From: Escherichia coli
GTDB taxonomy: Bacteria > Pseudomonadota > Gammaproteobacteria > Enterobacterales > Enterobacteriaceae
Direction: 5' to 3' (one strand)
Length of the DNA: 64,000 bases
Assembly (NCBI RefSeq): GCF_003334815.1
Contig: NZ_QOWO01000008.1
In this document: positions 8,245 to 43,592 of the stretch, piece after piece
How the letters are laid out: every line of letters starts with the position of its first letter
Numbering within the stretch: the stretch's first letter is position 1
Program-made: the position numbers and the translations under genes
The notes under the pieces: generated by a model
Told to the model about the DNA's origin: nothing
Seen by the model: the letters and a program-made list of their open reading frames with translations, nothing else
Databases searched by the model: none

Positions 8245-8335
8245 GTTTTCTCTTTAGTGGGCGTCAAAAAAAACGCCGGATTAACCGGCGTCTGGCGTCT
8301 GACGACTGACTTAACGCTCAGGCTTTATTGTCCAC
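8245..8335 (-). ncRNA. sroD: Candidate SroD small RNA (fadD 3' region / rnd upstream)
   Basis: Recalled from the literature as lying between rnd and fadD; exact ends not verifiable here. Overlaps the fadD terminator hairpin. Confidence 0.25.
8266..8290 (-). terminator. Intrinsic terminator downstream of fadD
   Basis: Palindrome CGCCGGATTAACCGGCG with a U8 run on the minus strand (A8 at 8264-8271 on plus). Confidence 0.55.
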
Positions 8336-10003
8336 TTTGCCGCGCGCTTCGTCACGTAATTCTCGTCGCAAAATTTTTCCGACGTTAGATTTCGGTAACT
8401 CATCACGAAACTCCACCAGCTTCGGTACTTTGTATCCCGTGAGCTGACGGCGGCAAAAAGTCACCAGTGACTCTTCGGTAAGCGATGGATCTTTTTTCAC
8501 TACGAAGATTTTCACCGCTTCACCACTGGAGCCGGAAGGTACGCCAACAGCCGCGACTTCCTGTACGCCAGGATGCTGCATGACGACATCTTCAATCTCG
8601 TTGGGATAGACGTTAAAACCGGAAACCAGAATCATGTCTTTTTTACGATCGACAATGCGCAGGAATCCTTCTTCATCCATTACCGCGATGTCGCCGGTGT
8701 GTAACCAGCCATTTTTGATGATTTCATCGGTAGCATCGGGACGCTGCCAGTAACCCAGCATCACCTGCGGTCCTTTGACACAAAGCTCACCCGGTTGACC
8801 TGGTGGTACTTCATTATCATCATCATCCACCAGTTTGGCTTCCGTCGACGGCACCGGCAAACCGATGCTACCACTATGATAATCAATATCATATGGGTTA
8901 ACGCTGACCAGCGGCGCACACTCGGTAAGGCCATAGCCTTCCAGCAGATACTGTCCGGTCAGTTTCACCCAACGCTCTGCCACCACTTGCTGCACTGGCA
9001 TCCCACCGCCTGCGGAAAGATGCAGACTGGAGAAATCCAGCTGCTGGAACTCTTTATTGTTCAGCAACGCATTGAACAAGGTGTTAACGCCCGTGATAGC
9101 GGTAAACGGATATTTCGCTAACTCTTTTACCAACCCTGGAATATCGCGCGGGTTAGTGATAAGCAGGTTCTGCCCACCCAGTTCGATAAACAGCAGGCAG
9201 TTAATGGTCAGGGCAAAAATGTGATACAGCGGCAGCGCCGTCACCACCAGCTCTTTGCCCGGATGCAACAGCGGACCATAGGTCGCGTTAACCTGTTCCA
9301 GGTTCGCCAGCATATTGCGGTGAGTCAGCATCGCGCCTTTCGCCACACCAGTGGTGCCGCCGGTGTATTGCAGAAAAGCTAAATCTTCCGGCACCAGTTC
9401 GGGTTTGACGTACTGCATCCGGTAGCCGTTATGCAGTGCGCTACGAAATGAAATGGCATCTGGCAGATGGTATTTCGGCACCAAACGCTTGATGTATTTA
9501 ACAACGAAATTGACTACCGTGCCTTTTGCCGTAGATAGCTGATCGCCCATACGGGTCAGAATTACGTGCTGAACGGCGGTTTTATCAACCACTTTTTCCA
9601 GTGTGTGAGCAAAGTTAGACACGATAACAATCGCCGATGCGCCGCTATCGTTAAGCTGATGCTCAAGCTCACGCGGGGTATACAACGGGTTAACGTTTAC
9701 GACGATCATCCCGGCACGCAAAATGCCAAACAGCGCCACCGGATATTGCAATAAATTAGGCATCATCAACGCAACGCGATCGCCTTTCTTCAGCCCCAAC
9801 CCTTGTTGCAAATAAGCGGCAAACGCGCGACTGCGTTCTTCCAGCTTGCGGAAGGTCATTACCTCCCCCATATTCACAAACGCAGGTTGATCGGCGTAGC
9901 GCGCGACCGACTGCTCAAACATATCTACCAGAGATTGATAACGGTCAGGGTTGATCTCCGTCGGAACGTCCGCGGGATAACGGTTAAGCCAAACCTTCTT
10001 CAA
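8318..10003 (-). CDS. fadD: Long-chain fatty acid-CoA ligase
   Basis: AMP-binding enzyme; 561 aa from TTG at 10003 ([10 protein letters not shown]...), ORF-track 583 aa form is an upstream extension. Confidence 0.9.
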
Positions 10004-20285: not shown

Positions 20286-21842
20286 TTACTCATCTTCATC
20301 GTGCGCCGGTTGCTCTTTAACAATGCGAACCAGATCAACACGATAATCATTGGCTTCAATGATGGTGATATGCAGTGGCCCTACATCAATCACATCGCCC
20401 ACACGGGGAATGTGACCATTTGCCGAGATCACGAGGCCCGCGACCGTCGCGATATCATCGTCATCGGCAAGGTGCTCAACATCAAGCGCCTGCTGCAAGG
20501 CATGCAAATCTGTACCGCCTTTTACCAGCCAGCCGTCACCATCAGTAATGATTTCCGGCGTTTCGTCAGCGTCCGGGAATTCACCCGCAATGGCTTCCAG
20601 CACATCCAGCGGCGTGACCAGACCTTGTACCACACCAAACTCGTTGGTCACGATAACAAAGCTCCCGCGAGCACGACGCAGCACGCCCAACAGGTTGATC
20701 GGATCGAGGGTTTCCGGGACGATAATCGCCGGAGACGCCGAAGCAATCGCCGCCACATCAACGCCCTCTTCCAGCGCCACCAGCAGTTCTTTAGCACGTA
20801 CAATACCGATGATTTCATCCAGTTCACCGCGACATACCGGGAACAGACTGTGCGGTGAAGAGAGCAGTTGCTCGCGGATTTCATCGACCCCGAGATTAGC
20901 GTCAACCCAGCTTATTTCACCGCGCGGCGTCATGATCCCGCGCAGAGAACGCGACGCCAGCGTCAGTACGCCGTTAATCATGTAACGTTCTTCTTCGGCA
21001 AATGCACCTTCCGGGATCGGCATCGGCATCGGGTTATCGGCATCGTGCTGAACATTGGCCTGACGTTTCCCGCCCATCAAACGCAGGATGGCATCGGCAG
21101 TACGCGCTCGCAGCGGCAAAGTCGACTGGTGGCGAATAAAGTTGCGACGCGCAATCTGGTTAAACACTTCGATGATGATCGAGAAGCCAATCGCGGCATA
21201 CAGGTAACCTTTCGGAATGTGGAAACCGAAACCTTCTGCCACCAGACTCAGACCAATCATTAACAGGAAGCTCAGACAGAGCACCACCACCGTGGGGTGC
21301 TGGTTAACGAATCGCGTCAGCGGTTTGGATGCCAGCAACATAACCGCCATCGCAATCACTACCGCCGCCATCATCACCGGCAGATGGTTAACCATCCCTA
21401 CTGCAGTAATTACCGCATCCAACGAGAAGACGGCGTCAAGGATGACAATCTGTGTGACGACCACCCAGAAACTGGCGTAGCCTTTACCGTGGCCGGAATC
21501 ATGATCGCGGTTTTCCAGCCGTTCATGCAGTTCGGTTGTTGCTTTGAACAGCAAGAATATCCCCCCGAACAACATAATCAGGTCGCGTCCGGAGAAGGAG
21601 AAATCCATGACGGTAAATAGCGGTTTGGTCAGCGTGACCATCCATGAAATCAGCGACAGCAGCCCCAGACGCATAATCAGCGCCAGTGATAACCCCAGCA
21701 AACGCGCTTTATCGCGTTGTTTTGGCGGCAGTTTATCAGCAAGAATGGCGATGAAGACCAGGTTATCGATACCCAGCACAATTTCGAGAACAACAAGCGT
21801 GAGTAGCCCCGCCCAAATTGAGGGGTCCATTAAGAATTCCAT
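20286..21842 (-). CDS. yoaE: TerC-family membrane protein with CBS pair and CorC/HlyC C-terminal domains
   Basis: 518 aa; TerC-type integral membrane N-terminus, CBS domains. Confidence 0.9.
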
Positions 21843-22304
21843 GACAAGCTCCTGCTTAAGGAATAGCTATTCGACGCCAGAAATAATGCAGGCGTAACGA
21901 CAAAATGCAAACGAAAGGTGCGGCATAGAGTGCCAGAAAGGCAGGCGTTAAAAGGCCTGATGCTGAAATGACGTCGGTGACGATCCATACTGCGGGCTAC
22001 TGCCCTATACTCCATGGTTGTTAAACGGGAGTTAAACATATCAGAGACGCCTCTGATTTGGCAAAGATTTACCTTCCTTTGCAAACGAATGTGACAAGGA
22101 TATTTTACCTTTCGAAATTTCTGCTAATCGAAAGTTAAATTACGGATCTTCATCACATAAAATAATTTTTTCGATATCTAAAATAAATCGCGAAACGCAG
22201 GGGTTTTTGGTTGTAGCCCTTATCTGAATCGATTCGATTGTGGACGACGATTCAAAAATACATCTGGCACGTTGAGGTGTTAACGATAATAAAGGAGGTA
22301 GCAA

Positions 22305-43299: not shown

Positions 43300-43592
43300 G
43301 AGTGTGTGTTATGGTTGACTATAAAGTCAGCGAAGGAAATGCTTCTGGCTTTTAACAGATAAAAAGAGACCGAACACGATTCCTGTATTCGGTCCAGGGA
43401 AATGGCTCTTGGGAGAGAGCCGTGCGCTAAAAGTTGGCATTAATGCAGGCTTAGTTGCCTTGCCCTTTAAGAATAGATGACGACGCCAGGTTTTCCAGTT
43501 TGCGTGCAAAATGGTCAATAAAAAGCGTGGTGGTCATCAGCTGAAATGTTAAAAACCGCCCGTTCTGGTGAAAGAACTGAGGCGGTTTTTTT
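43300..43592 (+). ncRNA. ryeA: RyeA/SraC small RNA, antisense to SdsR (approximate 5' end)
   Basis: Known sRNA in the pphA-yebY spacer; 3' end set by the intrinsic terminator at 43553-43596. Confidence 0.4.
43357..43460 (-). ncRNA. sdsR: SdsR (RyeB) sigma-S-dependent small RNA
   Basis: Minus strand reads GCAAGGCAACUAAGCCUGCAUUAAUGCCAACUUUUAGCGCACGGCUCUCUCCCAAGAGCC...GACCGAAUACAGGAAUCGUGUUCGGUCUCUUUUU, matching recalled SdsR with its terminator hairpin; sigma-S-like -10 (TATTCT) just upstream. Confidence 0.65.

Follow-up and report, generated by a model that had tools for sequence, protein, structure and literature searches.

In bacteriophage T4 a hairpin lying between the Shine-Dalgarno (SD) sequence and the AUG reduces a spacing of 22 nucleotides (nt) to 5 in gene 38, and one of 27 nt to 11 in gene 25 (PMC3014915). 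This intervening hairpin is needed for efficient initiation (PMC3014915; PMC7297116). Here we analyse the spacer between the divergent genes yoaE and manX in a 64,000-nt stretch of the Escherichia coli chromosome (the window), where the short leader gene yoaL, lying upstream of yoaE, appears to have an initiation region of comparable geometry.

The YoaE protein has TerC (PF03741), CBS and CorC domains. In Salmonella it has been renamed MgpA; it guards against excess Mg2+ and counts for survival in egg white and for virulence. Its regulation is called unclear by the authors, who suspect that the YoaL leader is involved (PMC12421838). Epitope tagging revealed YoaL, at first as an open reading frame (ORF) of 69 amino acids (aa). 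In the account of Weaver et al. the start was later shifted downstream by initiation-complex ribosome profiling, and conversion of the start codon to a stop codon strongly lowered expression of a yoaE-lacZ fusion (10.1101/511675). The genes and initiation signals lie as follows, in coordinates of the window.

20286-21842, minus strand: yoaE (ORF list and RefSeq annotation)
22305-23276, plus strand: manX (ORF list and RefSeq annotation)
21830-21988, minus strand: yoaL, a leader ORF of 52 codons (RefSeq annotation; b4751 in MG1655), with its stop codon TAA at 21830-21832, 10 nt inside yoaE
22010-22013, minus strand: SD-like GGAG, part of UGGAG in E. coli and of AGGAG in most species; it precedes the yoaL AUG by 21 nt
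21994-22005, minus strand: hairpin A, GGGC-AGUA-GCCC, in the 5′ untranslated region (UTR) of yoaL between the SD-like sequence and the AUG
21840-21853, minus strand: yoaE initiation region, with SD AGGAG at 21849-21853 and ATG at 21840-21842; GGAG and ATGGAA are invariant in 79 species

The spacer runs from 21843 to 22304, the same 462 nt as in the initial annotation, and is present in 5424 of 5426 complete E. coli genomes, with at least 99% identity in 5350. That annotation, which called attention to hairpin A, read the spacer as a single leader of yoaE carrying a manganese riboswitch core. It overlooked gene-level facts that are already known, i.e. that yoaL is an annotated leader peptide gene and that the spacer holds a published PhoP box and CpxR site, and also that half of the spacer belongs to manX. 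The translation of yoaL, the need for its start codon and the binding of PhoP and CpxR are taken from the literature, while the conservation, frame, geometry, covariation and lack of a riboswitch match come from the present analysis.

We aligned 79 Enterobacteriaceae yoaE loci, taken from the closest 80 of 395 loci and giving 77 distinct sequences. The YoaE relatives listed all have at least 87% identity, and intermediate taxa such as Yersiniaceae and Erwiniaceae are not among them. The 12 nt of hairpin A fold alone at -7.3 kcal/mol, and the four base pairs can form in every one of the 77 distinct sequences, so that the hairpin is indeed conserved across the Enterobacteriaceae. The only changes in the stem are from CG to UG (4), CG to UA (1) and GC to GU (1), and all six keep the pairing. 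The loop is variable in sequence, and has 3 nt in 16 of the 77 and 4 nt in the rest. Hairpin A is a real, conserved RNA stem-loop within the translation initiation region of yoaL (GGGCAGUAGCCC), and not a Mn riboswitch.

The sequence GGGC-N4-GCCC is also a palindrome in DNA. Lying downstream of the promoter, near positions +23 to +34 of the transcript as predicted, it might be bound as an operator by a transcription factor that acts as a dimer. The invariant arms and variable centre would be in keeping with this. However, the variation in loop length would shift the phasing of the half-sites, which at four bases are very short. Moreover, all the substitutions in the stem are C to U on the yoaE-sense strand, which keeps the RNA pairing; there are no G to A changes, although these would be equivalent for the symmetry of DNA. 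We therefore regard an operator as very improbable.

In the GGAG upstream of hairpin A the three G nucleotides are invariant and the A is nearly so. This distant AGGAG (at -28/-27) forms the best duplex with the anti-SD sequence at the 3′ end of 16S rRNA in 74 of the 77 sequences, with a mean of -7.0 kcal/mol. Windows at the canonical distance from the yoaL AUG reach a mean of only -3.7 kcal/mol, and lie in the stem of the hairpin. Of the 77 sequences 75 have the layout GGAG, 4 nt, stem-loop-stem, 5 nt, AUG, with a gap of 20-21 nt between SD and AUG, and one more has 4 nt before the AUG. At this distance (A/U)GGAG, the only good SD of yoaL, is too far from the AUG for normal initiation. Folding of hairpin A would leave 4 + 5 unpaired nt, bringing the SD and AUG to a workable distance, and the hairpin-bridged site would then load ribosomes onto yoaL. 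On balance we favour the reading that this is a split ribosome-binding site of the kind found in T4 genes 25 and 38, feeding the translationally coupled leader yoaL. Neither the split-site geometry nor the covarying hairpins inside yoaL are described in the literature searched, and both appear to be new.

The reading frame of yoaL is conserved with respect to that of yoaE. The distance from the yoaL ATG (taken from the conserved ATGGAYCGTCAYCGACG) to the yoaE ATG ranges from 110 to 155 nt and is 2 modulo 3 in all 79 species, and in 77 of the 79 the ORF (40-55 aa) is uninterrupted as far as a stop codon whose first base is 10 nt past the yoaE ATG. The peptide is conserved only in its first six residues, MD(R/P)HRR, and in the C-terminal residues that overlap the ribosome-binding site of yoaE. 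The ORF of 84 aa previously noted in this region (21830-22084, minus strand, TTG start) is indeed listed, but it is the 52-aa yoaL plus an unconserved 5′ extension. The extension begins upstream of the predicted -35 element, and there is an in-frame stop within 10 codons upstream of the yoaL ATG in 28 of the 79 species. The 84-aa and 69-aa versions of the ORF were both rejected, in view of this early stop and on two further grounds. The 69-aa form would have to start at an ATG within the -10 hexamer, and an intermediate ATG at M9 (CCATGG) is present only in E. coli and a few relatives.

Ribosomes translating yoaL would melt the hairpins within it (B to E, below) and shield a C-rich, G-poor RNA; the interior of yoaL is 33% C and 20% G, which is the composition preferred by Rho. 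They would terminate at the UAA 10 nt inside yoaE, beside the strong AGGAG-N7-AUG site. Expression of yoaE depends on this passage through yoaL, as the published effect of the start codon shows. The route of coupling could be termination and reinitiation, unfolding of the leader, or keeping Rho off untranslated RNA.

The leader contains four further small hairpins inside yoaL, of which three covary.

21972-21982, minus strand: hairpin B, CGUC-ACC-GACG, in codons 3-6 of yoaL, which are invariant
21942-21959, minus strand: hairpin C, with its 5′ arm within the CAUCAGGCC motif
21922-21934, minus strand: hairpin D, GGCA-CUCUA-UGCC, with 91.5% of cells paired
21874-21895, minus strand: hairpin E, ACGCCUG...CUGGCGU, with partial support and less regular

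Hairpin C has changes on both sides in all six pairs; the pair of columns 63 and 84, for example, is AU in 37, UA in 11, GC in 4, UG in 4 and CG in 1. In hairpin D the pair 99-108 alternates between GC (24), AU (21) and GU (4). In hairpin E 61.9% of cells are paired, with changes on both sides in four of the seven pairs; it folds at -8.5 kcal/mol in E. coli, and by inspection the CCUGC of its 5′ arm could pair instead with GCAGG at the SD of yoaE. The stem of hairpin B never varies, except for 5 unpaired cells among the 77 distinct sequences, and because of this its structure is neither supported nor refuted. For the structure of the whole leader (25 pairs) 81.4% of cells are paired, compared with 30-43% when the partners are slid, and the covariation score is 0.135 against a shuffled mean of 0.077, a value reached by none of 500 shuffles. 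In E. coli the leader has an unremarkable minimum free energy (z = -0.29). Since folding of the single sequence is thus uninformative, only the comparative counts are informative for the structure of the leader.

The start of yoaL is conserved beyond the needs of its peptide. Most positions of the block UAUGGAYCGUCAYCGACGYC (encoding MDRHRR; 21966-21989, minus strand) are identical in the 77 distinct sequences (loci L002-L081), including the third positions of the CGU codon and of the rare arginine codon CGA, which face each other in the possible hairpin B. The rest of the YoaL peptide diverges freely, and the invariance of the block is explained neither by coding nor by the weak hairpin B. 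It hints at a further partner, i.e. a protein, a small RNA (sRNA) or a codon-specific effect. The block could be the site of a trans-acting RNA-binding protein or sRNA, for example a CsrA dimer bridging AGGAG and AUGGA with the hairpin as scaffold. Two invariant GGA motifs do lie about 22 nt apart around the hairpin, and the invariance from UAUGGA through CGACG, synonymous sites included, would find an explanation. But these GGA motifs are outside the hairpin loops, the match beyond GGA to the CsrA consensus from systematic evolution of ligands by exponential enrichment is poor by inspection, and no crosslinking-immunoprecipitation or sRNA-interaction data for yoaL were found in the literature. 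We consider such a site unlikely.

We note that in six loci of the Klebsiella/Raoultella group (L040, L052, L054, L056, L069 and L072) yoaL has CAU in place of CAC at codon 4. The resulting GUCAUCG is perfectly complementary to CGAUGAC in the 3′ part of the leader, while CAC is retained in the other genera that have CGAUGAC. The match may reflect a long-range pairing peculiar to this clade, or be a coincidence.

There are several points that weigh against a split ribosome-binding site. The stem is near invariant, and the covariation of hairpin A amounts to a single change that is fully compensatory plus five wobble changes, and these are not all independent of one another. The direction of the effect, i.e. 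whether the hairpin raises or lowers translation of yoaL, is an expectation from the geometry. The SD of E. coli K-12 is UGGAG, and an upstream CCAUG can also pair with the AUG region of yoaL, so that the local fold in E. coli K-12 may differ from that of other species. The start of transcription is a predicted one, and transcription beginning downstream of the AGGAG would undo the reading. The invariance of synonymous sites in yoaL codons 2-6 is not explained by a role as spacer. Lastly, there is no entry for yoaE or yoaL in the 3′-end tables of Adams et al. 2021 (PMC7815308), and thus no support there for Rho-dependent attenuation.

In E. coli, Escherichia albertii and Salmonella enterica arizonae the sequence around 22011-22016 and 21985-21990 (minus strand) has (A/C)(A/U)UGG(A/G)G where other genera have AGGAG. 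In E. coli K-12 a pairing is possible between the resulting CCAUG and the UAUGG that spans the yoaL start codon, which could partly mask the AUG there.

The distribution of the element was analysed using a covariance model of the segment comprising the SD, hairpin A, the AUG and hairpin B (leader model R1). Its sole match in the 64-kb window is the yoaL site, at 73.4 bits. It has no match upstream of four more distant YoaE homologues, of 53-59% identity (L083-L086), whose upstream regions are short and GC-rich. In view of this the yoaL leader looks like a lineage-specific addition, and the hairpin and SD motif is not a general trait of genes for TerC-CBS-CorC proteins.

We turn now to the riboswitch with which hairpin A had been compared. 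TerC genes such as alx carry a yybP-ykoY riboswitch, and in the window a genuine yybP-ykoY aptamer lies upstream of mntP at 25718-25814 (plus strand), 3.7 kb away, as the initial annotation had it. The sequences that it quoted in support are also present on the yoaE strand, GGAGUAUAGGGCAGUAGCCCGC at 22013-21992 and CAUCAGGCC at 21962-21954 (both minus strand). Those sequences could make the leader a degenerate or novel Mn2+ or pH riboswitch of yybP-ykoY type serving a TerC-family gene, with GGGCAGUAGCC as its L1 core. The 10/11 match to GGGGAGUAGCC, the TerC domain of YoaE and the proximity of the genuine copy would be in favour of this. However, RF00080 gave no match in the 701 nt of 21700-22400 at an expectation value (E) of up to 10, and no Rfam family matched at E ≤ 1 in 15 diverse orthologous enterobacterial yoaE loci. 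When 21700-22400 was compared with all 4227 Rfam families by cmscan at a permissive threshold, the only matches were five at chance level (E from 2.5 to 9), none of them RF00080. By contrast, a similar search around mntP as positive control recovered RF00080 at 41.6 bits (E = 7.6e-10). The absence of this aptamer from a default scan with gathering thresholds is explained by this score being below the gathering score of 45 (Rfam 15).

The resemblance in sequence fares no better. With up to one mismatch GGGGAGTAGCC occurs twice in the window, one occurrence being the real riboswitch. With one mismatch allowed, 0.44 occurrences are expected per window, and two or more turn up in 9 of 100 shuffles, so that the 11-mer resemblance is no more than chance. 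The AGUA bases that mimic the L1 core are the loop of hairpin A, whose positions are the most variable (0.45-1.5 bits) and which has 3 or 4 nt; i.e. within the hairpin it is the supposed core that is conserved least. The second motif, CAUCAGGCC, is not a riboswitch core but part of a different local hairpin (C) that covaries. The region downstream is a translated ORF, and the four-helix architecture is absent from the leader. At the level of sequence and structure the riboswitch reading is already refuted, the lack of a covariance-model match being an outcome that the initial annotation itself had named as refuting it, and we accord it next to no credence. This removes a tempting but wrong annotation, that of a second Mn riboswitch near mntP. 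The alignment of the mntP aptamer itself spans only part of the 177-position RF00080 model.

The signals for transcription in the spacer are listed next.

22190-22304, plus strand: manX 5′ UTR, from the published length (PMC5861419) and the manX start at 22305; it is no part of any yoaE leader
22142-22157: CRP-like site ACGGAtcttcaTCACA, by sequence inspection, the assignment to CRP being our reading; centred at -40.5 from the manX start
22035-22064, minus strand: predicted sigma-70 promoter of yoaL-yoaE (promoter scan, 9 of 12 matches plus TG), with -35 TTGCCA at 22059-22064, a spacer of 18 nt, TG at 22042-22043 and -10 TATGTT at 22035-22040
22022-22038, minus strand: PhoP box TGTTTAactccCGTTTA, which lies across the -10 element and the predicted start; identical in sequence to that in the Shigella list, and conserved in the alignment
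22068-22082, minus strand: CpxR-type box GCAAAggaagGTAAA, directly upstream of the -35 element; its TGCAAA-N5-GTAAA is conserved in 79 species

The full-length 5′ UTR of manX is 115 nt (PMC5861419), which places the start of manX transcription at 22190. The spacer is not a single leader of 462 nt as first supposed, but comprises about 115 nt of manX 5′ UTR, about 160 nt of divergent promoter DNA (about 22030-22190) and about 185 nt of predicted yoaE leader, nearly all of which is yoaL. In the alignment both hexamer blocks of the promoter are conserved in 79 species, while the spacer between them is variable; the conserved blocks are, in order, TGCAAA-N5-GTAAA, TCTTTGCCAAA, TGnTATGTTTA-N5-YGTTTAA and AGGAGTA. 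Transcription of yoaL-yoaE most likely starts near 22026-22029 (about 1,901,769-1,901,772 in MG1655), from the predicted extended -10 sigma-70 promoter. The predicted start is some 185 nt from the yoaE ATG, rather than within 50 nt of it. A PhoP-activated promoter with its -10 element at GAGTAT or TATAGG was rejected; the positions required for such a -10 element vary, and PhoP represses yoaE.

In Shigella TGTTTAactccCGTTTA is the listed PhoP box of yoaE, and the yoaE promoter sequence protected by PhoP is reported to match the box motif (PMC5775216). Deletion of phoPQ raised yoaE expression 7.14-fold by microarray and 3.18-fold by quantitative reverse transcription PCR, indicating repression (PMC5775216). 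The placing of the box over the -10 element and the predicted start site fits such repression. We note that in the Shigella study the same box (22022-22038) is also listed as a possible site for manX, on the other strand (PMC5775216), and since it is listed for both genes one PhoP site might serve the divergent pair. In Salmonella, phosphorylated CpxR gives a DNase I footprint from -235 to -262 relative to the yoaE ATG, together with positive regulation (PMC6952189); this is the same position as the CpxR-type box. The promoter of yoaL-yoaE would thus be activated by CpxR and repressed by PhoP.

These two regulators bear on the suggestion that the leader responds to metal or pH. In Salmonella, mgpA'-'lacZ translational fusions rise at 10 mM Mg2+, but only at neutral or alkaline pH (PMC12421838). 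PhoP being off at high Mg2+ and non-acid pH, together with Cpx being on at alkaline pH, predicts this pattern by inference, so that the leader need not be a metal sensor. Of the idea of a structured, possibly metal- or pH-responsive leader the structural part has stood, with a conserved hairpin, further hairpins that covary, a distant predicted start and a fusion that responds to Mg2+ and pH; the yybP-ykoY identity has not.

Hairpin A might nevertheless be the sensor, its folding depending on Mg2+, pH or temperature and setting initiation on yoaL, and hence a post-transcriptional induction of MgpA at high Mg2+. Short helices are stabilised by Mg2+, and the strictly conserved geometry, the response of the fusions and the suspicion of YoaL voiced by their authors would speak for it. 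However, the GC stem of -7.3 kcal/mol is predicted to be 99% folded unaided, which would leave little dynamic range for a sensor. Moreover, PhoP repression plus CpxR activation would already predict the published pattern, and the fusion data leave transcription and translation unseparated. A sensing hairpin A is thus rather doubtful.

In a broader form of this idea the yoaL leader would be a dedicated post-transcriptional sensor of high cytoplasmic Mg2+ or alkaline pH, a mirror image of mgtL-mgtA. Sensing would be by hairpin-dependent initiation at the split site or by decoding of the invariant CGU-CAC-CGA-CGU. It would set the number of ribosomes traversing a structured, Rho-prone leader, and thus the amount of MgpA, independently of PhoP and CpxR. 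We put this forward only tentatively, and think it rather unlikely.

Returning to the split ribosome-binding site that we prefer, we infer the start of transcription, the shortening of the spacing by hairpin A and the route of coupling to yoaE from sequence. The analysis provides a concrete anatomy for the regulation of MgpA, i.e. a promoter activated by CpxR and repressed by PhoP, a hairpin-bridged site for yoaL, an invariant MDRHRR block and further hairpins.

Other elements of the window, away from the spacer, are these.

27408-27868, minus strand: cspA-type thermoregulator leader (Rfam, 135.5 bits)
43357-43501, both strands: SraC/RyeA and SdsR/RyeB antisense pair (Rfam)
8267-8359, minus strand: sroD (Rfam)
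25511-25598, both strands: long near-perfect inverted repeat between yobD and mntP

The first three are no surprise in this region of the E. coli chromosome. The inverted repeat matches several models of microRNA precursors on both strands (e.g. mir-282 at 25.3 bits), and is probably a repetitive extragenic palindromic (REP)-type element or a bidirectional terminator.

We may now compare the yoaL leader with the systems that it most resembles. It shares with the yybP-ykoY Mn2+ riboswitch (RF00080; mntP, alx) a place upstream of the gene for a TerC-domain membrane protein and the common 11-mer GGG(G/C)AGUAGCC. Unlike that riboswitch it lacks a covariance-model match, a four-helix junction and conserved L1 and L3 loops; the matching bases lie partly in a variable loop, and the region is translated.

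In the leaders of mgtL-mgtA and of Salmonella corA there is, as here, a short ORF in a long, structured and C-rich leader of a divalent-cation gene under PhoP control, and translation of the leader ORF determines downstream expression. The differences are considerable. The yoaL ORF overlaps the start of the main gene, and its translation is required, with a positive effect. PhoP represses yoaE rather than activating it. YoaL has no proline-rich or acidic stalling motif, its conserved part being MDRHRR. Its leader has no Mg2+ riboswitch or other Rfam match, and no Rho-dependent 3′ ends are on record.

A closer parallel in gene arrangement is offered by the small leader ORFs of pssL-pssA, baxL-baxA and argL-argF, which likewise overlap the 5′ end of a larger gene in another frame. 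According to the account that describes them together with yoaL (10.1101/511675), mutation of the start codon of pssL, baxL, argL or yoaL alters expression of the downstream fusion. The effects differ, with a strong decrease on loss of yoaL, a 30% decrease on loss of pssL and an increase on loss of baxL or argL, and a hairpin-bridged SD is not described there for pssL, baxL or argL.

The geometry itself is nearest to that of T4 genes 38 and 25. In each case the distance between SD and AUG is too great, at 22 and 27 nt in T4 and 20-21 nt in yoaL, and is spanned by a stable hairpin that is conserved among close relatives. The hairpin brings the spacing down to 5 nt in gene 38 and 11 nt in gene 25 and, we would expect, to about 9 unpaired nt (4 + 5) in yoaL. 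The T4 cases were proven by mutation and structure probing, whereas that of yoaL is deduced from sequence alone. In T4 the device serves a structural gene, while the split site of yoaL would be chromosomal and serve a regulatory leader ORF; if true, this would be a rare chromosomal case of a device known mainly from phage T4.

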